The notes under the pieces were generated by a model. The model saw only the letters and a list, made by a program, of their open reading frames with translations. It was not told the origin of the DNA and ran no database searches. DNA of 37,063 nt from an uncultured Gemmatimonadaceae bacterium (GTDB taxonomy: Bacteria; Gemmatimonadota; Gemmatimonadetes; Longimicrobiales; RSA9), in contig CAYXJH010000001.1 in NCBI GenBank assembly GCA_964465415.1, positions 1 through 37,063 of the forward strand, given 5' to 3'. Below are positions 1,878-23,629 of the stretch, piece after piece. Within the stretch, counting starts at the first letter, position 1; every line of letters begins with the position of its first letter. The translations under genes were made by a program, and so were the position numbers.

Positions 1878-2375
1878 ATGAACCGGACACCCACCGCCCT
1901 GGTCGGACTGGCGATCCTGGTCGCGGGCTGTACCGATCTGGGCCTGGAGGGAAACATTCCGGCGGAGCAGGGCCGGACCGCCCCACCACCCGAACTGGTC
2001 GCCCAGGTCATGGCTCCAGCGGATCACGACACGCGCCCGCTCGTCGTGGATGGGCGACTCTGGGTCCCCGCCGGGCTGCCAACCACGCGCGCCGCCGCTG
2101 AGCTTCGTCCGGTCGGGTCGACCGCCGGCCAGACCGTGTATGCCCGGGCGTGGGACGAGCGTCCGTTCGGCGCTATCTTCACGCGCGTCCAGGTCCCCGA
2201 TGCGGAGTCGGCCACCACGGCCCGGGCCGCGATGCAGGCGCGCCGTGAGCACTGGCAAGAATACGCGCCAGCTTCGGGACCGTCCGGTCGTTCGGCACCG
2301 ACGGGTCGGTTCCGAACGGAAGCGCCGGGTATAGAAGCGCCCCAGGCGGCAGACCCGCAGGCGCCCGATCAGTAA
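1878..2375 (+). CDS. Hypothetical lipoprotein (165 aa)
   Basis: A purine-rich RBS (AGAGGAGAGGGAG) precedes ATG 1878; lipobox signal MNRTPTALVGLAILVAG|C. Confidence 0.75.
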   Translation: MNRTPTALVGLAILVAGCTDLGLEGNIPAEQGRTAPPPELVAQVMAPADHDTRPLVVDGRLWVPAGLPTTRAAAELRPVGSTAGQTVYARAWDERPFGAIFTRVQVPDAESATTARAAMQARREHWQEYAPASGPSGRSAPTGRFRTEAPGIEAPQAADPQAPDQ

Positions 2376-2716
2376 GCGCGCCGCGAACCGGCTTCGCGGG
2401 CGATCGCCGCGGCCGTGATGCCACCGTGTGACACATCCCACGCGGCACCGCCGTCCCGCACGAGAATCACCTGGGGCGACTCGTGCCGGACGCCCAGTCG
2501 GGTGGCGATCTCGGCGGACAGGGACCGCCCGCCCACCACGTCCACGATGTAGACGGGTACGTCCGGGTACTCCTCCAGGAATCGCTGCACCTCCAGCGCG
2601 GCGCGACGGGAGGTCCCGCAATACGGGCTGTGCTTGTAGATCACCGCGAGTGACGCGCCGCACGCCGCGATCACGTCGTCCTCCACCCTGACCCTGACCG
2701 CCTCCGGCTCGCTCAT
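2369..2716 (-). CDS. ytxJ: YtxJ/BrxC-family monothiol bacilliredoxin (DUF2847, thioredoxin fold)
   Basis: KHSPYCGTS (family KHSxxCxxS) and GVRHESPQVIL motifs; ATGA overlap with the DUF72 gene. Confidence 0.85.
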   Translation of the reverse strand: MSEPEAVRVRVEDDVIAACGASLAVIYKHSPYCGTSRRAALEVQRFLEEYPDVPVYIVDVVGGRSLSAEIATRLGVRHESPQVILVRDGGAAWDVSHGGITAAAIAREAGSRRAY

Positions 2717-3516
2717 CCGAACAGCTCCGTCTGTGGCGAAAGCTCATCAGGCGTCACGGCCTCATGGCCGAGCAGCGACTGTAGCCGTCGGGCGCTGGCC
2801 GGGCTGTGACCCTGGTAGTCGTTGTTGAAGAACGCGTACACCACGTCCACATCGAGGGATCGGATCCGTTCCGCCCACGCCGCGATCTCCCCGTCCCGCG
2901 CCGTCGCCAGGTCCCGCAGGTCCGGCCGTCGCCTGGGCGTGCCGAGCCAGCGGAGATAGAGCATCCGACCCGGCGTCTCGGCGGCCACGTCGCGGGCGTC
3001 CGACTCGGCCAGCCAGGGACCGACGCTGACGGCGAGCGCCGTATTCGTCTCCGCGATCATCCGAAACGTCGCCGGAGTGAACCAGTCCCGGTCTCGAAAC
3101 TCGATTGCGAAGCGCAGGTCCGGTGGGAGCTGGGACAGGAACGCCGCCACGGTCCCTGCGTGAGTCGGGCCGAAGTCGGGTGGGAGCTGGACCAGGATGG
3201 GTCCCAGCTTGGAGCCGAGGCCTCGCGCGTCTTCGCAGAAACGCAGCGCGGGGCGCGGGTCGCGTAACCGGGCCTCGTGCGTAACCTCACCTGGCATCTT
3301 CAACGTGAACGTGAACCCGTGGGGTGTCCGCTCACGCCAGGAAGCAAAACGCTCCGGCGGTGGCGGGCCGTAGAACGTGGAGTCGACCTCCACCACGTCG
3401 AATGCCCGTGCATAGATCCTCAGCTGATCCTCGGATCGGCTCCCGGTCGGATAGAAGCGGCCTGCCCAGTCGCTGTAGCTCCAGCCCTGCGTCCCGATGT
3501 GGATCTCGGGTCTCAA
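2713..3516 (-). CDS. DUF72 (YecE-like) domain protein
   Basis: IGTQGWSYSDW.G.FYP, VEVDSTFY, F.F.LK, LVQLPP.F, AIEFR, YLRW.G and FFNNDYQGH motifs. Confidence 0.9.
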   Translation of the reverse strand: MRPEIHIGTQGWSYSDWAGRFYPTGSRSEDQLRIYARAFDVVEVDSTFYGPPPPERFASWRERTPHGFTFTLKMPGEVTHEARLRDPRPALRFCEDARGLGSKLGPILVQLPPDFGPTHAGTVAAFLSQLPPDLRFAIEFRDRDWFTPATFRMIAETNTALAVSVGPWLAESDARDVAAETPGRMLYLRWLGTPRRRPDLRDLATARDGEIAAWAERIRSLDVDVVYAFFNNDYQGHSPASARRLQSLLGHEAVTPDELSPQTELFG

Positions 3517-3540
3517 CGGCTCTCCCGTTTCGCGTTCACG

Positions 3541-3819
3541 TCAGAACAGCTTGCCCGAAAGCGAGGGCTCCTTGTCCACACGCGTCCCGATCTTCACGAA
3601 GGTGGCAAGACGCGTCGTGCCCTCGGCGTGAAGCGTCTCATGCACCCGCCGGACCGCCTCGAGGATGTCCGCCAGCTCCCCCTCCATGTTCGTGCCGTTG
3701 CTGTGCAGCTCCACGCGCACCCCGGAGCCCTCGAGAACGGCGTGCGCCCGCTTCACTTCCTTACGGACCGACGTGCCGACTCCGATCGGTATGACCTGGA
3801 CTTCCGCTATGGCTTTCAT
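3541..3819 (-). CDS. MTH1187/YkoF-family thiamine-binding protein
   Basis: 92 aa with AEVQVIPIG...SV, GTNMEGE and KIGTRVDK; GGGAGG RBS upstream. Confidence 0.85.
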   Translation of the reverse strand: MKAIAEVQVIPIGVGTSVRKEVKRAHAVLEGSGVRVELHSNGTNMEGELADILEAVRRVHETLHAEGTTRLATFVKIGTRVDKEPSLSGKLF

Positions 3820-3894
3820 GACACCTCCCGGATCGTTTGACGACGATGGGCCGCATCCATCTTATCGGGGCCGTCGATCGCCGGGCCAGCGGCG

Positions 3895-4410
3895 TCAGCC
3901 CTGGCGGTAGAAGCTGAGCGTCGCGTCGCCGAACCGGTGGCGCTCGGCGCTGCCCGGCAGCCGGTGCTCCGCGGCGTGCTCCACGGCCAGGACGGGTGCG
4001 AACGGCACATCGATCCAGCGAATGACGATGCGGTCGGTCTGACGGGACCCGTACGGCGGGTCCAGGAGCGCGACGTCATAGCTGGCGACGGGTAGCTCGA
4101 ACGCGAACCGCAGTGCATCGCGTTTGAAGATGCGGGATCGTTTGGTGGCCCGGAGTGCGGCAACGTTCGCCTTCAGCGAGTGCAGCGCGGCCGGGTCATT
4201 CTCAACGAAGTCCACGGACCGGGCACCACGGGAGAGGGCCTCGAGCCCGACCGCGCCGGTACCGGCATAGAGCTCCACCACGCGCGCCCTGGCCAGCTCG
4301 GCTTCGAGCAGGGTGATCCAGCGGTCGCGGAGGTCCTCGGCTGTTGGACGGATCCGCCCAGCCGGTGAAGTCAGGTCGCGGCCGGCCCACCGGCCACCCA
4401 TGATCCTCAC
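3895..4410 (-). CDS. rsmD: RsmD-family 16S rRNA m2G966-type methyltransferase
   Basis: MRIMGG..GR, RPT, ELYAGTGAVGLEALSRGA and DPPY motifs. The GTG start overlaps the upstream stop (GTGA). Could be a paralogue. Confidence 0.85.
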   Translation of the reverse strand: MRIMGGRWAGRDLTSPAGRIRPTAEDLRDRWITLLEAELARARVVELYAGTGAVGLEALSRGARSVDFVENDPAALHSLKANVAALRATKRSRIFKRDALRFAFELPVASYDVALLDPPYGSRQTDRIVIRWIDVPFAPVLAVEHAAEHRLPGSAERHRFGDATLSFYRQG

Positions 4411-4757
4411 GAGCCGCGGATGCGGGCGATATGGAGCGTGAGCGCGTCCGCCATGCGCTTGCGAACGTCGGGCTCGGTCTCACCCGTCGCCCCGCACCCC
4501 GACACGTCCGGGCTGTACGCCGAGTACCCGACACCCGTATCCTCGACGACGATGTCGGTCGAATCCACCGCCGTACCGGGCTCCGCCGGCGCCAGAATGC
4601 TCTTCAGCGAGTCGGGGCCGAGCGTGTCGGTATAGCGGAGACAGACCGTGATGACGCCCCGTCGCTTCCCGTGGACGTACTGACGGCAAGCGCCTGCGGT
4701 ATCACCCAGGTACCAACCCTCGTCCTTGAGCTGCTTGAGCAAGTGTCTGGCTTCCAT
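4407..4757 (-). CDS. HicA-like/HicB-like fusion protein (116 aa), catalytic His replaced by Cys
   Basis: aa 1-58 match the HicA dsRBD-like pattern (LKDEGWY...G[AC]RQYVH....G.ITV......L....LKSIL). aa ~68-116 match the HicB partial RNase H domain (IVVEDTGVGYSAYSPDVSGCGATGET..V...M.DAL.LHI). Confidence 0.8.
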   Translation of the reverse strand: MEARHLLKQLKDEGWYLGDTAGACRQYVHGKRRGVITVCLRYTDTLGPDSLKSILAPAEPGTAVDSTDIVVEDTGVGYSAYSPDVSGCGATGETEPDVRKRMADALTLHIARIRGS

Positions 4758-4772
4758 AACCGGCCGGTGGCC

Positions 4773-6350
4773 TCAGGGCGCGATGGAGTGGAAGGTGATG
4801 CTCTCCTCCCGATCCTCACTGTGCTGCAACGCCCAGCGACTGCCGAAGAGGATCAGTGGCCGGTCCCTCGCGTCGTACACCAGGAGCCGACCCTCCCCCC
4901 GGGCGACCCGTCGGATGTCGGGCTCGGGACCTTCCACCCACCGGGCGAACCGGTAGTCCAGCCGGTCGAGGATCCCGCGGGCGCCGTACTCATGCTCGAG
5001 GCGGTGCAGGAGGACGTCGAACTGCAGCAGTCCGACCGCACCCACGATCGGGGTGTGCCCGGCCTGCACATCCTCGTAGAAGACCTGCGCCGCTCCCTCC
5101 TCGCTCAATTGCCGGAGACCGGTGTCCAGCTGCTTGCGTCGCAGCGGGTCGGCCACCCGGATCCGGGCGAAATGCTCCGGGCTGAAACGCGGGATGCCGC
5201 CGAACCGGATGTCGCCGTCCCCCGACAGGGTGTCGCCGATGCGCAGGGCGCCCCGATCGTGGATCCCGATCACGTCGCCCGGCCATGCTTCTTCCACGGC
5301 CGAGCGATCCTGCGCCATGAACTGTTGCGGCTGGGCGAGCCGGATGATCGCCCCGCTGCGGGTATTGCGCACTTCGAGACCCGGCTCGAACCGGCCGCTG
5401 CAGATCCGAAGGAACGCGATCCGGTCCCGGTGCCGTGGATCCATATTCGCCTGGATCTTGAAGACGAAGCCAGTGAACGCAGGGTACGACGGTCCGACCT
5501 CCGCGCCGTCCTCCGCCTGCCGGCCCGTAGGCGAGGGAGCGAACTCCAGGAAGTGCCGAAGCAGCGGCTCCACCCCGAAATTGGTCAGGGCGCTTCCGAA
5601 GAACGTGGGTGACAGCTCACCGCTCGCGACGGCGCCGGCGTCGAACCCGGATCCAGCCATGTCGAGCAGCTCGAGGTCCTCACCGAGACGATCCACAATG
5701 TCGGCGCCGAGCCGCTCCACGACCTCAGGATCCGCCAGGCCGCCCTCGAACACGTTCGCCCGTCGGGCCCCATGGTCGCCACCACGCTCGAACAGCCGCA
5801 CCGCCCCGGCGCGCCGGTCGTACACGCCCAGGAACTCGTTTCCACGGTGGATCGGCCACGTCACCGGGTAGCACCGGATGCCGAGCTCGGTCTCCACATC
5901 GTCGATCAGCTGGAGCGGGTTCTCGCCCGCCCGGTCACACTTGTTCACGAAGGTGAAGATCGGGATCCGCCGCAGCTTGCACACTTCGAACAGCTTCCGC
6001 GTCTGCTCCTCCACCCCCTTGCGGTTGTCCAGGAGCATGATCGCGCTGTCCGCCGCGACCAGCGTACGGTAGGTGTCTTCCGAGAAGTCCTGGTGGCCCG
6101 GCGTATCCAGCAGGTTGATCCGGTACCCCTCGTAGTCGAACTGCAACACGCTCGACGTCACAGAAATGCCCCGCTCCTTCTCCAGCTCCATCCAGTCGGA
6201 CGTCGCGTGACGCTCGGCACGCCGCGCCTTGACGGACCCCGCCAGGTGGATCGCCCCACCGTACAGCAGGAGCTTCTCCGTCAACGTGGTCTTGCCCGCA
6301 TCGGGGTGACTGATGATGGCGAATGTGCGCCGTCGTTCGATCTCCGTCAT
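4773..6350 (-). CDS. prfC: Peptide chain release factor 3 (525 aa)
   Basis: RRRTFAIISHPDAGKTTLTEKLLL, SDWMELEKERGISVTSS, DTPGHQDFSEDTYRTL, NKCD, GSALTNFGV and FKIQANMDPRHRDR. True start is ATG 6350. Confidence 0.97.
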   Translation of the reverse strand: MTEIERRRTFAIISHPDAGKTTLTEKLLLYGGAIHLAGSVKARRAERHATSDWMELEKERGISVTSSVLQFDYEGYRINLLDTPGHQDFSEDTYRTLVAADSAIMLLDNRKGVEEQTRKLFEVCKLRRIPIFTFVNKCDRAGENPLQLIDDVETELGIRCYPVTWPIHRGNEFLGVYDRRAGAVRLFERGGDHGARRANVFEGGLADPEVVERLGADIVDRLGEDLELLDMAGSGFDAGAVASGELSPTFFGSALTNFGVEPLLRHFLEFAPSPTGRQAEDGAEVGPSYPAFTGFVFKIQANMDPRHRDRIAFLRICSGRFEPGLEVRNTRSGAIIRLAQPQQFMAQDRSAVEEAWPGDVIGIHDRGALRIGDTLSGDGDIRFGGIPRFSPEHFARIRVADPLRRKQLDTGLRQLSEEGAAQVFYEDVQAGHTPIVGAVGLLQFDVLLHRLEHEYGARGILDRLDYRFARWVEGPEPDIRRVARGEGRLLVYDARDRPLILFGSRWALQHSEDREESITFHSIAP

Positions 6351-7078
6351 CGTCGTGGAACCTGAAGCCGGACCGGCACCGTGGCGGGAACGCCCATCCC
6401 ATCGTGTAGCTTGGGCTCGTAGCGACCGGCCCGGGCCACCTCGATCGCGTACTGGTCCCAGTACCGGCTCCCCGAGCCGCCCGTCAGGCGTACCCCCGTT
6501 ACCCGCCCGGACTCGTCCAGGGACACGGCCAGGTCGATCGGTCGGCCCCTGGCCTGTCGTGCTTCCACCAGGTCCTGTGACGTCGCGAGCGGTGGCAGCA
6601 CGCGACCGGTCCTGCCCCGTTGTTCCGCTTCGCAGATGACACCCGGCAGAACCGACGCCACCCGACCCTCGATCACTCTCAACCGTACGCCCCAGTCCGC
6701 CGGCCCATCGGCCAGCAGCCCGGTCTCCACCATCCGTGCGAGCTCGTAGGCGCGTTCGCTCGGCACGCTGCTTCGGAGGATCCGGACCCACGACAGCCGA
6801 CCGTCGTTGCCGTACCGCACCGAAAGCTCGACCGAGTCCGCCGGCGTCGCGTCCGTGGCCCACAGGAGCATGGCTCCGCGGGTGCCCGGTCGCGTCAGCG
6901 CATCCAGGGATTGGGGTACCTGCGGCTCACCGACATAGACACACCGCCGATTGCCCAGCCCGTCCAACGCCTGGCGAGGTGGCTCCAACTCGGCGTAACG
7001 CCGCTCACCGCCGGACCTGCACCCCGCGAGCACCAGCGGCAGCAGCAGCACCACCGCCACCGCGTATCGAACGATCAC
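6347..7078 (-). CDS. Lipoprotein with TonB C-terminal-like domain(s)
   Basis: Lipobox LVLAG|C. The C-terminal IDLAVSLDESGRVTGVRLTGGSG..YWDQYAIEVAR..RYEP...DG..V is TonB_C-like. The stop overlaps the prfC ATG. Confidence 0.75.
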   Translation of the reverse strand: MIVRYAVAVVLLLPLVLAGCRSGGERRYAELEPPRQALDGLGNRRCVYVGEPQVPQSLDALTRPGTRGAMLLWATDATPADSVELSVRYGNDGRLSWVRILRSSVPSERAYELARMVETGLLADGPADWGVRLRVIEGRVASVLPGVICEAEQRGRTGRVLPPLATSQDLVEARQARGRPIDLAVSLDESGRVTGVRLTGGSGSRYWDQYAIEVARAGRYEPKLHDGMGVPATVPVRLQVPRR

Positions 7079-7198
7079 TGCCCGTTTTCTCCCTCCGGAT
7101 CAACCGATCCCCAGCTGAACGCCGCCTTCTACACCGAATGGCCGCCGATGAGCCACCCTGCGTGCCGATACATCGGCCGGCGGATGCGGGCGGTCGCT

Positions 7199-7954
7199 TC
7201 AGGCGGAATCCAGGTCGGAACCACGCCCGACGAGGCTGAGCATCCTGCGGGTCTCGATCGAGGCCAGCGCGGTCATGAACGGCACGAACACGAGGTAGGT
7301 GGCAGCCTGGACCAGGCGAGGGAAACCCGCGTCTCCGGCGTACCCGGCCGCGGCCACGAGCAGGACGGCCCAGAGCAAATTTAGACCGAGCACCAGGCCG
7401 GTGCGCCGGCGGGACCCGGCCACGCCATGGAGCCGGCGCGCGTCCCCGTACCGGGGACCGCGCCACGCACGGCTTCCCGCTCGGCGGTAGTGCAGGTGAT
7501 CCGGCACCAGGTAGGCAATGACGGCTGCCGGCCAGTGCCACCAGAGCACGGGCAGGCTAGCGAGCACCGCGAGCGGCATGGACAGGATGCGATCGTCCGA
7601 GAGGCCCACCAGCTCAGCGATCATGGCGCCCACCGTCCCGCCGATCGCGGCCGCGAACGCGGTCAGCACGAGTAGAACCAGCACATTGGTCAGGTGCGTG
7701 AACGCCCGGTCCACTGCCAGGGCGGCCACCGACCAGCCCTCGTGCATGCCGAGTCCCCTGGCAGCGGCAGCGACGAGGAAGGGGCTCGCGCCGGCCACGA
7801 GCAGGATCTGTTGCCCGGCCGGTCCGGGAATCGTCGCCGCGACGGCCCACGTCACCAACAACCAGGGCAGCATCGCCCGATAGACCGCCACGAGCTCGCG
7901 ACCTCGCACGGTCCCATCGAAGCCGTTCTGCGCGGGCGCCGACCTTCCTCTCAT
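7199..7954 (-). CDS. Hypothetical integral membrane protein (251 aa)
   Basis: About 6 hydrophobic segments in the distal part of ORF 7199..8563. ATG 7954 overlaps the upstream TGA (ATGA). Confidence 0.7.
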   Translation of the reverse strand: MRGRSAPAQNGFDGTVRGRELVAVYRAMLPWLLVTWAVAATIPGPAGQQILLVAGASPFLVAAAARGLGMHEGWSVAALAVDRAFTHLTNVLVLLVLTAFAAAIGGTVGAMIAELVGLSDDRILSMPLAVLASLPVLWWHWPAAVIAYLVPDHLHYRRAGSRAWRGPRYGDARRLHGVAGSRRRTGLVLGLNLLWAVLLVAAAGYAGDAGFPRLVQAATYLVFVPFMTALASIETRRMLSLVGRGSDLDSA

Positions 7955-8421
7955 GGCGGGGATGGTAAGCCGGCTCGCACACCGAAGCCACGGGCCATGG
8001 CCACCGCCACCAGGACGATCGCCACGACGATGACCACCTGCGCGTAGCTGATCACCGCCAGCCGGCGGGCCGCGCCGGTGTCGAACCGTCGTCCCCGCCC
8101 CAGCCAGATCCCCCACTGGATCAGGATGGCCATGGGCCAGAGCTCCAGCGTGTACAGCAACGCGGCCAACCCCATCTTCAACCAGAACAGGTCGTTGTAC
8201 AGGTAGTATCCCCCGGGCTTCTCCAGTCCGGCGATCGCGCGAACCAGACCCGTCACCAACCAGAGTGACAGCGCCACGATCCACCAGTTGTCCGCCGTGA
8301 ACACCGGCCGGAGCGAACCGCCGCGCGCGTGCGACCGGAGGGCGGACGCACGCATCCAGATCGCGCCCAGTCCGATCCCGAGCGCCAGGAGATGGAACGT
8401 CGCGAACAACCATCGGATCAT
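7951..8421 (-). CDS. DUF2214-family membrane protein
   Basis: FHLLAL, ADNWW, TGLVR....EK...YY..N.LFWLKM and E..P motifs, and C-terminal AVAMARGFG. Confidence 0.8.
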   Translation of the reverse strand: MIRWLFATFHLLALGIGLGAIWMRASALRSHARGGSLRPVFTADNWWIVALSLWLVTGLVRAIAGLEKPGGYYLYNDLFWLKMGLAALLYTLELWPMAILIQWGIWLGRGRRFDTGAARRLAVISYAQVVIVVAIVLVAVAMARGFGVRAGLPSPP

Positions 8422-8607
8422 GGAGAGCGGAACCGTGTATGGGTCGGTCGACATGGCTTCGGCCGCCCACGACGTTGCGCGCGGCCGGGCGTTTCGGCAA
8501 CCATCCCGCCCCGCGTATGACTGACACCGCCCGCGTCTGGTGCGGTCCGCGGCCGGGTGCCATTTTGAGAACCCCGTTAACGAACTGCCGATGGAGGTAT
8601 GACGACT

Positions 8608-19863: not shown

Positions 19864-20814
19864 TCAGTCGATGGGCTTGAGGTTCGCAACGATCTCATCG
19901 CGGCGCGGTTCGAGGAACGGCGGCAGGGCCACCTCCTCGCCGAGCCGGTCCGGGTCCTCGTCCACAGCGAAGCCGGGGCCGTCGGTGGCGATCTCGAACA
20001 GCACCCCGTTCGGCTCCCGGAAGTATAGGCTCCGGAAGTAGAACCGATCCACCGGTCCGCTGTTGGGTATGCCCAGCTCGCCGAGCCGGTTCGCCCAGGC
20101 GTCGTACTCGTCGTCCGGCGTACGGAACGCCACGTGGTGCACGCCTCCCGCCCCCTGGCGAACCACCGGCAGGTCCGGCTGCACGGCGACATGTAGCTCC
20201 GCGTGCGCTCCGCCTCCGGCCATCTCGAATACGTGGACCGGACTCCTTCCCAGCGCCGGGTCGGTGTATTCGCGCGTGGCGGTCATGTTCATGACATTGG
20301 TCAGGACCGCATCGGTGGGCGGGAGCGTCGGCACGCTCATGACGATGGGGCCGAGCCCCCGGATCTGGTGCTCTTCCGGGACCGAGCTGCGCTCCCAGGG
20401 CACCCCGGCCTCCCCCACCCCGCCGTCGTCCACCAGCGCCAGGCGCTGACCCTCCGGGTCCTCGAAATCCAGGGTCGCCCGGCCGTCCCGCTCGCTCACA
20501 CCGCCGTGGACGATATCGTGCTCGTCCAGCCGACGCGCCCACCACTCCAGCGACTCGGCGCCGCCCACCCGGAGCGCCGTCCGCACGATGCTGTGCGCAC
20601 CACGCCGCTCCGGCGGCATGGGCCAGTCGAAAAAAGTCAGGTCGGTGCCGGGCGATCCGACGGCGTCGGCATAGAAGAGGTGGTAGGCCGAAACGTCGTC
20701 CTGGTTCACGCTCCGCTTCACCAGCCGCATTCCCAGTACCTTGATGTAGAACCGGTAGTTCTCCCGGACCGCCGCCGTTATCGCGGTGAGATGATGGATT
20801 CCAAGCAGATCCAT
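19864..20814 (-). CDS. Ring-cleaving dioxygenase, VOC superfamily (MhqA/MhqO-like)
   Basis: [62 protein letters not shown] and LPPFLE. Confidence 0.93.
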
Positions 20815-20856
20815 GGGGTGTCCGTCCTTTCTGTGGAGTTGTCCCCAGGCGGAGCA

Positions 20857-22098
20857 TCATCCGGGCCGGCCGTTCGCCACATACGCCGCCGCGCCGAGCC
20901 CGCCCGCCCGACCCGTCGCCCAGGCCCAGAGGAAGTTGTACCCGCCGATGGGTCCGAACGCGTCCAACATCTCCCCGCAAAGGAAGAGCCCGGGCCGCAG
21001 GCGGCTCTCCATCGTCCGGGGATCGATCTCGGCCAGGGCGACGCCCCCACCCGTCACCTCCGCCTTCCTGTACCCTTCGTCTCCGTCCCAAGGGAGAGGA
21101 TACCGACCTAACACGGCGGCGAGGCGGGTCCGGTCGTCGCGGCGCAGCTGGGCGAGGACCGTGGTCGGTGGCACGTCCGCCTCGGCAAGCAACGTGTCGG
21201 CCAGTCGCGCGGGCAGGTGACGCCGAAGCAGCGTTCCGACGGCCGTGGCGCTCCGGTCCATGAGCCGGCGGTCCCACGCGGCTTCGTCATCCCCATTCCA
21301 GGCCGCCAGGATCGGTTGGTGCGGCGAGCCGGCAGTTCGAGACCGAACGGCGTGATGGGAGATGTCCAGGACGGCCGGGCCACTGTATCCGTGATGGGTG
21401 AACAGGAAACCGCCACGGGCCGTTGCGGCTCCCTTCTCCAGCGGAGCAGTGAGCGTGACCGCAAGCGAGATGCCCGCCAGGCCGGCGTGGGCAAGCGATG
21501 ACGCGGTGAGCGGCGTCAGCGCCGGGTACAGCTCGTGGATGGTGTGGCCGAGCCGCCTCGCCGCACCCAGGCCGAAGCCGTCGCTGCCCGTCTTCGGTAC
21601 GGACAGACCGCCGCTGGCCAGCACCACCGCCGACGCCTCCACACCCGTTCCGTTCGCGAGCCCGACGCGCCACCGCCCGCTGGTGCCCACCGGATCCAGG
21701 GCATCCACCCTGGCCTGGAACCGGATGTCGGCGCCACGGTCGCGCGCCGCCGAGACCAGTCGATCACGGACATCGCGGGCGCGGTTCGACACCGGGAACA
21801 GCTTCCCCGACTCCGCCTCCAGCGCGAGAGGAACGCCCAGTTCATTCTCGAAGAACCGGCGCTGCTCGGGCAGGGGCCAGGAACGCAGGATATTGCGCAG
21901 GGTGTTGGACGACGACGCCGTCGTATACTGACGCGGATCAACTCGGGATGGCAGGACGTTGCAACGGCCGCCACCGCTGATCAGGATCTTGCGGCCGCCG
22001 TCCGCGGTCGTTTCCAGCAGGAGCACCCGGGCGCCCCGTTCCGCCGCGAAGATCGTGGCCATGAGGCCGGCAGCGCCGGCCCCGACCACCACGATCAA
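20857..22098 (-). CDS. HI0933/BaiN-family NAD(P)/FAD-dependent oxidoreductase
   Basis: GAGAAG, GRKILISGGGRCN, GKLFP, ASGGLSVPKTGSDG, FLFTH.G.SGP, AEVTGGGV and GPIGGYN; TTG start. Confidence 0.92.
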   Translation of the reverse strand: MIVVVGAGAAGLMATIFAAERGARVLLLETTADGGRKILISGGGRCNVLPSRVDPRQYTTASSSNTLRNILRSWPLPEQRRFFENELGVPLALEAESGKLFPVSNRARDVRDRLVSAARDRGADIRFQARVDALDPVGTSGRWRVGLANGTGVEASAVVLASGGLSVPKTGSDGFGLGAARRLGHTIHELYPALTPLTASSLAHAGLAGISLAVTLTAPLEKGAATARGGFLFTHHGYSGPAVLDISHHAVRSRTAGSPHQPILAAWNGDDEAAWDRRLMDRSATAVGTLLRRHLPARLADTLLAEADVPPTTVLAQLRRDDRTRLAAVLGRYPLPWDGDEGYRKAEVTGGGVALAEIDPRTMESRLRPGLFLCGEMLDAFGPIGGYNFLWAWATGRAGGLGAAAYVANGRPG

Positions 22099-22126: not shown

Positions 22127-23629
22127 TCACCGCCGATTGGCCTCCTCGACCCTGGGCACGTAATCCGTGGGCCCGGGTTGGACGTGGGCCGCGGACTCGT
22201 ACCAACGGGGCAGCGTGTCCTGTATGAACGCCTCCTTCTGGCGGCGCTGGGCGTCCATGTCCAGTCCGATGTACGCCTGGAGCGTCGCCTTTTCCCATTC
22301 CGGCATGGGCACCGGCTGCGCCACGCCCAGCCGGCTCAGGATCCGCGAAAGCTGGAGCCGGGCTTCACCCGCCATCTGCGCCGACACCGCCAGCAGCCTG
22401 GCCGACTCCGTCGGGGCGTGGGCGCCGGCACCGTGCGACGCCGCGATCCAGTCCCAGCGCCACTGCGCGCTCCGGATCATCTGGAGGATCGGCTCCATCT
22501 CGGCTTCCGTCGCGCCCGCGTCCCAGGCCGCTCCGGCCTCGATGTGCAGCATCGCGAGCTGACGCTCCGCGGCCCGACGCAGCTCGAACACCTTGTCCTG
22601 GTTGTCGTTTACCCGGTCGATCATCTCCTGCTCGGTCCCGCCGTGACAGATGAGGCAGGAGGTCTCGACCGCGTTTAGCGGGCTCTGGATGTGGTGACTC
22701 GTGAACTTGACCCCGCCCTCCCGGCGGAACGGCATGTGACAGTCGGCGCAGGCCACGCCCCGGAACGCGTGCACGCTGCTCTGATACAACTCGTAATCCG
22801 GGTGCTGGACCTTGATCATCGGTGCCCGGCTGATCGAATGGACCCAGTCGGTATGCCCAACGCGATCCAGAAAGGCCTCCTGCGCATCGGGGTCCAGACC
22901 GTTCTCGTCCCACGGGAAGATCAGGTAGTTGCTGGGACCGGTGAAGTAGTATTCCACGTGGCACTGGGCACACACCAGCGAGCGCATCTCCTGGTGCCCG
23001 ATGCGGTCCATGTCACGGCCCATTCGCTCCAGCGCCTCGACCAGCGCCGGTCGCGTGATCCTGAGCTGCATGGTGGTTGGATCGTGACAGTCCTGGCAGC
23101 CAATCGGATTCACGACCTCCTCACCGTGATCGCGCCATTTGGCGGCGTAGAATCCCTCCGTCCCGTACTCATTCATGAGCCGGGGTACGTCGGTACTCTT
23201 GCACGTCCAACACGTGCCGGGCTGGTCGATGTTGGTGCGCAGCGACCGGTGAACATCCTTGACCGCGTAATAGTGGCCACGGATCTGGTCGTAGTCCCGG
23301 GCGAATGCGTATCCGGCCCAGAGCACGACCATCTCGGGGTGCTGGGCCAGCATGTCACGATGTCGCGAGCCCCCGTACTTCGACTGGAACGTGGTGTCCA
23401 GCGTCTGGATGTAGCTCTGGAATTGACGCTGGAACTGCTGACCCCACACGGCGTTGCGCGGCTCGAACTCCGGCAGCGGCTGGACGGGCACGCCTGCCAC
23501 TACGGCCTCGGTCCTGCGCTCGATGATGGATGCGCCGAGCATCCCGATCAGGAAGACGAGGACGACCGTCGCAAGGAATAGGAGCCACGCGACCCAGGGC
23601 CTGTGCTGCACGTAGTCTGTGATTCTCAT
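22127..23629 (-). CDS. nrfA: Pentaheme ammonia-forming cytochrome c nitrite reductase
   Basis: CWTCK active-site heme plus CQDCH, CAQCHVEYY, CADCH and CLICH; LWAGYAF, RGH, KVQHPDYE and AQWRWD...ASHG...HAP; N-terminal TM helix. Confidence 0.96.
   Translation of the reverse strand: MRITDYVQHRPWVAWLLFLATVVLVFLIGMLGASIIERRTEAVVAGVPVQPLPEFEPRNAVWGQQFQRQFQSYIQTLDTTFQSKYGGSRHRDMLAQHPEMVVLWAGYAFARDYDQIRGHYYAVKDVHRSLRTNIDQPGTCWTCKSTDVPRLMNEYGTEGFYAAKWRDHGEEVVNPIGCQDCHDPTTMQLRITRPALVEALERMGRDMDRIGHQEMRSLVCAQCHVEYYFTGPSNYLIFPWDENGLDPDAQEAFLDRVGHTDWVHSISRAPMIKVQHPDYELYQSSVHAFRGVACADCHMPFRREGGVKFTSHHIQSPLNAVETSCLICHGGTEQEMIDRVNDNQDKVFELRRAAERQLAMLHIEAGAAWDAGATEAEMEPILQMIRSAQWRWDWIAASHGAGAHAPTESARLLAVSAQMAGEARLQLSRILSRLGVAQPVPMPEWEKATLQAYIGLDMDAQRRQKEAFIQDTLPRWYESAAHVQPGPTDYVPRVEEANRR

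Follow-up and report, generated by a model that had tools for sequence, protein, structure and literature searches.

The fused gene and its neighbours

On the minus strand of the window, the whole stretch of 37,063 nucleotides from an uncultured Gemmatimonadaceae bacterium that was analysed here, a gene of 116 codons plus stop (4407..4757) joins a His-less HicA-like half to a small HicB-like half. The frame opens with ATG, and its product begins MEARHLLK as read from the window sequence. Residues 1-58 (4584..4757, minus strand) form the HicA-like, dsRBD-type half, delimited by a Pfam match to residues 4-56, by the fit to 6g26 (Z 6.6) and by secondary structure. Within it lies the former active-site motif G22-A23-C24 (4686-4694, minus strand), where C24 is encoded by TGC (gca at 4686-4688 of the plus strand). 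The linker PAEPGTAVDST (residues 57-67; 4557..4589, minus strand), placed by family alignments and by its dN/dS, varies in both length and sequence across the fusion family. The HicB-like or UPF0150-like half (residues 65-116; 4410..4565, minus strand), assigned by Pfam (residues 73-112) and by matches to 6u0i_B, 6hpb_B, 2dsy and 6g1c, consists of three strands and one long helix at 95-115, and it stops short of the beta4/DBD region found in canonical HicB. Cysteines are found at positions 24, 39 and 88. An earlier note had described the single 116-aa frame, its two domains, the linker, the TGC-encoded motif and the three Cys, and all of these are present. Its statement that the protein has no HTH or RHH domain is also correct, as both the sequence and the AlphaFold2 (AF2) model end directly after helix 95-115, and the C-terminal DNA-binding domain of HicB is absent.

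We confirmed that this is a real gene encoding a single-chain HicA-HicB protein. Soil-metagenome contigs from runs X4 and X5, neither of them flagged as the source, cover 4383-4873 and 4425-4869, respectively, with 0 differences from the window, and a single open frame is kept in 12/12 DNA-level orthologues and in 46 protein clusters. No stop separates the halves in the X4 and X5 contigs or in the 12 fused orthologues at the DNA level, and because the contigs are identical to the window and the orthologues keep one open frame, the fused frame is not an assembly artefact. An antisense ORF (4431..5612, plus strand) was rejected as a high-GC artefact, since the conserved genes lie on the minus strand. 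When 2300-7300 was scanned for promoters and terminators, none turned up around the fusion gene, and no tRNA was found within the window.

The stop of prfC, which encodes RF3 (523 aa from MTEIERRR; 4773..6344, minus strand; Pfam GTP_EFTU and RF3_C, with synteny), lies 15 nt upstream of the ATG of the fusion gene. The mechanically called RF3 ORF is longer (4773-6863, minus strand, 696 aa), with an upstream GTG opening a 173-aa Gly/Arg-rich extension. This extension overlaps the region of a TonB-like gene and is probably untranslated, the conserved start being MTEIERRR at about 6344. On the other side, an RsmD-like methyltransferase paralogue (Cons_hypoth95; 3895..4410, minus strand) has a GTG start that overlaps the TGA stop of the fusion gene (GTGA, 4407-4410), and the same overlap was deduced from coordinates in genus g150. 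Another RsmD-like paralogue is present in the same genome (G000:C63:773-1285, 43% identity to the window copy); the copy beside the fusion is of a second type, which only part of the family has. We rejected this neighbour as an obligate partner because it is a second paralogue and because the window-type gene, at 55% identity or more, was not found in several fusion-bearing genomes (G463, G167, G440, G438 and G442).

The other genes of the window are ordinary ones, namely those for an M28 peptidase, GDPD, a CoA-transferase, an MFS transporter, a histidine kinase, asparaginase, cytochrome c552, an antiporter and TamB. The cytochrome c552 gene (22127-23629, minus strand), of the NrfA nitrite reductase type (Pfam E 1.8e-156), suggests that this soil Gemmatimonadota genome supports ammonifying nitrite reduction. 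Two ORFs of 454 and 460 aa (7199-8563 and 19895-21277, both minus strand) could not be assigned to a Pfam family under the thresholds applied, and the first of them has homologues in syntenic loci.

A HicA-HicB fold without the catalytic histidine

The window protein matched Pfam HicA_toxin at residues 4-56 (E 3.6e-5, 24.2 bits) and HicB_lk_antitox at residues 73-112 (E 0.008, 16.8 bits), neither reaching the 27-bit cut-off of its profile (PF07927 for HicA_toxin, PF15919 / UPF0150 for the HicB antitoxin), and it matched UPF0150 with E 0.047. These matches are sub-threshold yet specific. Across the fusion family, at E <= 0.01, HicA_toxin was matched by 41/46 members and HicB_lk_antitox by 22/46, while UPF0150 matched 10/46. 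NCBIfam held no family for the window protein, and none was matched in PADLOC. Searched against PDB sequences, a profile of the family retrieved HicA (4c26, E 0.0016; 6g26_E) and HicB3 (4p78, E 0.0083); matches to alphaRep proteins in the same search were discarded as repeat artefacts over 12 residues.

The AF2 model built with the family alignment had a pLDDT of 95.2 and a pTM of 0.87. Residues 1-58 adopt the dsRBD-like alpha-beta3-alpha fold of the HicA toxin when the model is set against solved structures (helix 3-12, strands 15-21, 24-29 and 35-39, helix 48-54), and residues 65-116 adopt the partial RNase H-like fold of the HicB N-terminal domain, with three strands (70-73, 78-81, 88-92) and helix 95-115. 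HicA chains ranked first in VIA-align, led by 6g26 (rmsd 1.7, 57/60 aligned, model residues 1-58), with 4p78, 1whz and 5yrz at Z 4.8-5.4. HicB N-domains and UPF0150 proteins ranked next, over model residues 65-116 (6u0i, 6hpb, 2dsy and 6g1c, Z 4.2-4.8), with 6u0i_B and 6hpb_B reaching Z 4.7-4.8 (rmsd 1.7, 52 aligned) and 6g1c Z 4.2. The HicB-like Z values are modest, but these matches are still top-ranked and span the whole domain. Owing to the small size of the domains, nothing in the PDB reached E <= 0.001 in Foldseek, whose weaker matches agree with VIA-align. No solved single chain fitted both halves well, whole-model rows of VIA-align giving Z <= 3.9 and rmsd >3. The profile and fold matches, which bear out the HicA and HicB assignments proposed earlier from the letters alone, therefore show that the two-domain HicA plus HicB reading is correct.

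Homologues of the fusion were found in a search of 5.8 billion proteins as 46 clusters (114-150 aa, 48-100% identity, all full length), and none carries a His at position 24, which is occupied by C (29 members), S (12), V (3) or T (2). As controls, other Gemmatimonadota HicA loci had the His in 17/17 alignments spanning the site, and metagenome loci outside the fusion family had it in 73/74; of the 80 metagenome loci, 77 span position 24, including 3 that belong to the fusion family (C, C and S), and the lone non-His control, L181, looks misaligned. According to a review (PMC11594946), this His is required for activity or toxicity in HicA of Y. pestis, B. pseudomallei, S. pneumoniae and E. coli, and is buried under HicB in the complexes.

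The change extends beyond the catalytic position. The canonical R-x-R-G-S-H is replaced in the fusion family by G-D-T-x-G-A-C, with loss of the R-x-R before the Gly, and the median net charge of the HicA-like half is -2 (n=46), whereas canonical HicA stands at +5 in both comparison sets (n=14 and n=65). The median pI of the family is 5.2. Judged from these sequences, both HicA catalysis and its basic RNA-binding character appear to be gone, which weakens the proposal of the earlier note that the protein serves as an RNA-binding adaptor.

Other residues have been held constant, and the invariant positions of the 46-member alignment include G22, R25, Q26, Y27, H29, E72, G87, C88, R101 and H109. 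Invariance of G22, R25, Q26, Y27 and H29 would fit a protein that is still a fused, autoinhibited TA or phage-defence protein (CapRel- or EzeT-like) using other catalytic residues, and fused HicAB have been proposed as defence proteins in the Gerdes preprint (bioRxiv 10.1101/2023.12.08.570793). We consider this very unlikely, given the absence of His in 46/46 members, the Val or Thr that stands at the site in 5 of them, the lost basic surface, the lack of a PADLOC match and a core chromosomal setting with vertical inheritance. Moreover, H29 and RQY are ancestral, being found in canonical HicA too.

The three Cys of the window protein had led to the idea of a thiol or metal sensor acting through C24, C39 and C88, and two of them are common in the family, C39 being found in 41/46 members and C88 in 46/46 of the protein alignment. 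However, C24 is present in just 29/46 and gives way to S, V or T, C39 is replaced by W, A or S in some members, and C88 is Val in genus g3 and in 7/12 DNA-level orthologues, while H29, C88 and H109 are ancestral HicA/HicB residues. A sensor role is thus extremely unlikely.

The locus in related genomes

In a phylum-wide sample of 401 genomes, an orthologue was present only in the genome of the window and in G167, and the remaining hits were either fusions that keep the His, L012 among them, or standard hicAB pairs. Among 73 genomes of the GTDB family, a few of them flagged as unpublished, fused copies were found in 9 genomes from 3/37 genera (2/2 in g1, 2/2 in g150 and 5/7 in g3), and split copies, with two genes at the same locus, in 2 more genomes of the same family, both of genus g167. 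The fused or split gene is confined to these four related genera of one Gemmatimonadota family, which fall into one clade of the RF3 tree (95/96) as a polytomy.

In the split form of G435 (L052/L006), a 62-aa HicA-like gene with the motif G-D-G-V-RQY, already without the His, is joined in L052 by an ATGA overlap to a HicB-like gene whose C-terminus is of the longer, canonical kind. In G434 (L005) this pair is also present, each gene in a different frame, and G-x-G-V-RQY describes the 62-aa HicA-like gene of both genomes. P0049 is a third 62-aa HicA-like protein of the split type. A small ORF lies between prfC and the split pair in this genus (L052 3066-3530, L005 1-470) and ends two codons before the HicA-like start; it may encode a DUF4442 or thioesterase-like protein.

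Every locus whose sequence extends far enough has prfC upstream of the gene (12/12; the window, G463, G167, G406, G407, G440, G443, G438, G442, the split G435, L105 and L106). The distance from prfC to the gene is 15 nt in the window and reaches about 1.5 kb elsewhere, some loci having further genes between the two. This fixed site 3' of prfC, among ordinary neighbours, departs from the mobile, patchy, defence-island pattern of type II TA modules, and the locus appears to have been inherited vertically within one clade. At least one close relative does without the gene: in G441 of genus g3 (95% complete) it is missing, and a DDAH-like ORF occupies the site. No further HicA or HicB was found in the genome of the window, which is 92% complete.

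Selection was estimated as dN/dS (Nei-Gojobori) over the 66 pairs formed by 12 DNA orthologues, bearing in mind that dS is near saturation between genera, which makes those ratios rough. All 66 pairs gave a dN/dS <1 (range 0.13-0.69), so the gene is not evolving neutrally. Within genera, where saturation is lower, the whole gene gave 0.13-0.27, its HicA half 0.09-0.42 and its HicB half 0.11-0.21. The linker was looser, at 0.17-0.85. These ratios show purifying selection on both halves at the level of sequence, of a moderate strength, with 48-68% identity across the family, like a fast-evolving neighbour. A slowly decaying remnant without function would agree with the loss in G441, the narrow distribution and the fairly fast divergence, but the frame stays open throughout the 12 DNA orthologues and the 46 clusters, every pair gives a dN/dS below 1 and both halves are constrained, making decay highly improbable.

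The same data bear on the suggestion, also made in the earlier note, that the protein is a decoy or orphan antitoxin neutralising incoming HicA toxins of phages or plasmids. The HicB-like half does retain the conserved HicB core (PDLPGC..H); its binding face, however, is presumably filled in cis by the tethered HicA-like half, which is itself under selection, and the genome has no other resident HicA or HicB. We hold a decoy function to be quite unlikely.

With regard to conservation, the fusion itself and its synteny with prfC were borne out, while C24 was not conserved. Vertical inheritance, purifying selection, a housekeeping context and the absence of His in all 46 members are in line with the claim that the protein is domesticated and does not work as a classical addiction system. 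Taken as a whole, the earlier interpretation is partly supported.

Proposed origin and known relatives

We propose, with moderate confidence, that a compact hicAB toxin-antitoxin pair was exapted (domesticated) and that the fusion is what remains of it, now non-toxic. In this scheme, the common ancestor of a few Gemmatimonadota genera would have carried a hicAB pair downstream of prfC. The catalytic His would have been lost first, while the pair was still two genes, a state retained in genus g167, and gene fusion and trimming of the HicB C-terminus would have followed in g1, g150 and g3. Disarming probably preceded fusion because the split genes of g167 already lack the His. The four genera form a polytomy, so the tree does not order the two states; that the split form came first is read from its HicB, which has a canonical-looking C-terminus.

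The product of these steps, as the model suggests, would fold as a single compact unit, with a permanent tether between its HicB-like and HicA-like halves. With no RNase chemistry and its basic surface lost, such a protein would not act as a toxin, nor would it serve in addiction or abortive infection. Our best guess for its present role is an exapted protein-binding module, possibly a small acidic adaptor or regulator that binds through the outer surface of a locked HicA:HicB look-alike, and we favour protein binding over RNA binding because the fusion is acidic and the basic motif of HicA is lost. The loss of the gene from G441, the moderate constraint, and the invariance of R25, Q26, Y27 and H29, by which some ancestral surface is kept, count against exaptation.

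A special case of exaptation would be an accessory factor that binds RF3 and modulates termination or quality control, and among the partner candidates RF3 is the only one with any support, which is weak and comes from modelling. Beyond the presence of prfC upstream in all 12 loci and the short gap in the window, complex prediction with RF3 and fusion family alignments gave 0.40 (runs of 0.41, 0.26 and 0.40) against 0.00 for the best control, the runs sharing at least 80% of contacts with a partner pLDDT of at least 81. The mark used was reached by 58/80 solved complexes and 2/110 mismatched pairs, but the range at 0.60 or under comprised only 7 of the 80 solved complexes and both mismatches. 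By the method's own account, most passes of this kind are wrong if the pairing was not likely beforehand, and we treat the score as a lead only. The gap to prfC also varies with intervening genes, the genera are close kin, so the synteny may be simply inherited, and the RF3 alignment (523 aa in 525 columns) has no indel particular to the clade. We consider an RF3 accessory factor unlikely, and the more specific version, in which the disarmed, fused TA pair is a dedicated RF3 accessory subunit and a lineage-specific regulator of termination or quality control, slightly less likely still.

TA genes are usually viewed as selfish or defensive modules, and clear cases in which a whole TA pair is kept by selection after the death of the toxin are rare. 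Here, successive stages are found in living relatives, from canonical pairs elsewhere in the phylum to a His-less split pair and a His-less protein that is fused and trimmed, and these preserved stages allow a direct test of how an addiction module becomes a host gene. If the link to RF3 held, termination factors would gain a partner of a novel type.

The split form of G435 has the layout of class 1 in the Gerdes preprint, the compact bicistronic hicAB with HicA before HicB, a small HicB without a DBD and an overlapping stop and start, but canonical class 1 members retain G-S-H and a basic HicA, unlike the His-less split form described here. Many HicB classes have an HTH or RHH domain, which classes 1 and 2 lack. 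The C-terminal half of the fusion also resembles UPF0150 or TTHA0281-type proteins, matching 2dsy (Z 4.6, 52-54 aligned) and the UPF0150 profile noted above; those proteins stand alone, whereas the window protein carries this domain in one chain with a HicA-like partner.

HicA and HicB in one polypeptide encoded by a monocistronic gene are known from Slr1999 of Synechocystis 6803 (PMC4963859) and from the fused classes 11-13 defined in the Gerdes preprint. As set out there, class 11 bears an HTH or RHH domain and classes 12 and 13 have the order B to A; the window protein has neither of these layouts (A-B-DBD or B-A), its order being A to B with no DBD. Compared with those classes, and with Slr1999 as far as its published description allows, the fusion studied here has a truncated HicB, is His-less throughout its family, is acidic and occupies a fixed chromosomal site. 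Fused relatives of 119-163 aa form sizeable ESM Atlas clusters in Acidobacteriota and Cyanobacteriota, and those with an intact GSH include P0048, P0051, P0061, P0112 and L012. The last of these (G326:C1:2566816-2567157) is a His-bearing single-chain HicA-HicB (GSHRQY) with a full HicB N-domain in a closed Gemmatimonadota genome, and offers a natural 'armed' fused counterpart for comparison. Among the distant relatives retrieved that span the site, 18/23 have the His. The unrelated cluster representatives P0066, P0072 and P0160 are fused HicA-HicB proteins with Y, Q and R, respectively, in its place, while P0086 and P0147, also without the His, look frameshifted. His loss may therefore be recurrent in fused forms.

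In the main texts of the literature on inactive, domesticated or fused HicA, no account of a HicAB that is conserved yet His-less was found, although the supplementary tables of PMC4963859 and of the Gerdes preprint may list similar proteins; in the text of the preprint, the words 'catalytic', 'active site', 'his' and 'inactive' do not occur. A parallel in fate is offered by Cas2, described in a review (PMC8987985) as a toxin component exapted from VapD-like toxins, which likewise combines a TA-derived fold, a structural non-toxic role (proposed in our case) and vertical inheritance, although the fold family of Cas2 and VapD differs from that of the HicA-HicB fusion. The fusion as such has already been published, and what the present locus adds to these known systems is a conserved dead form and the evolutionary series that leads to it.
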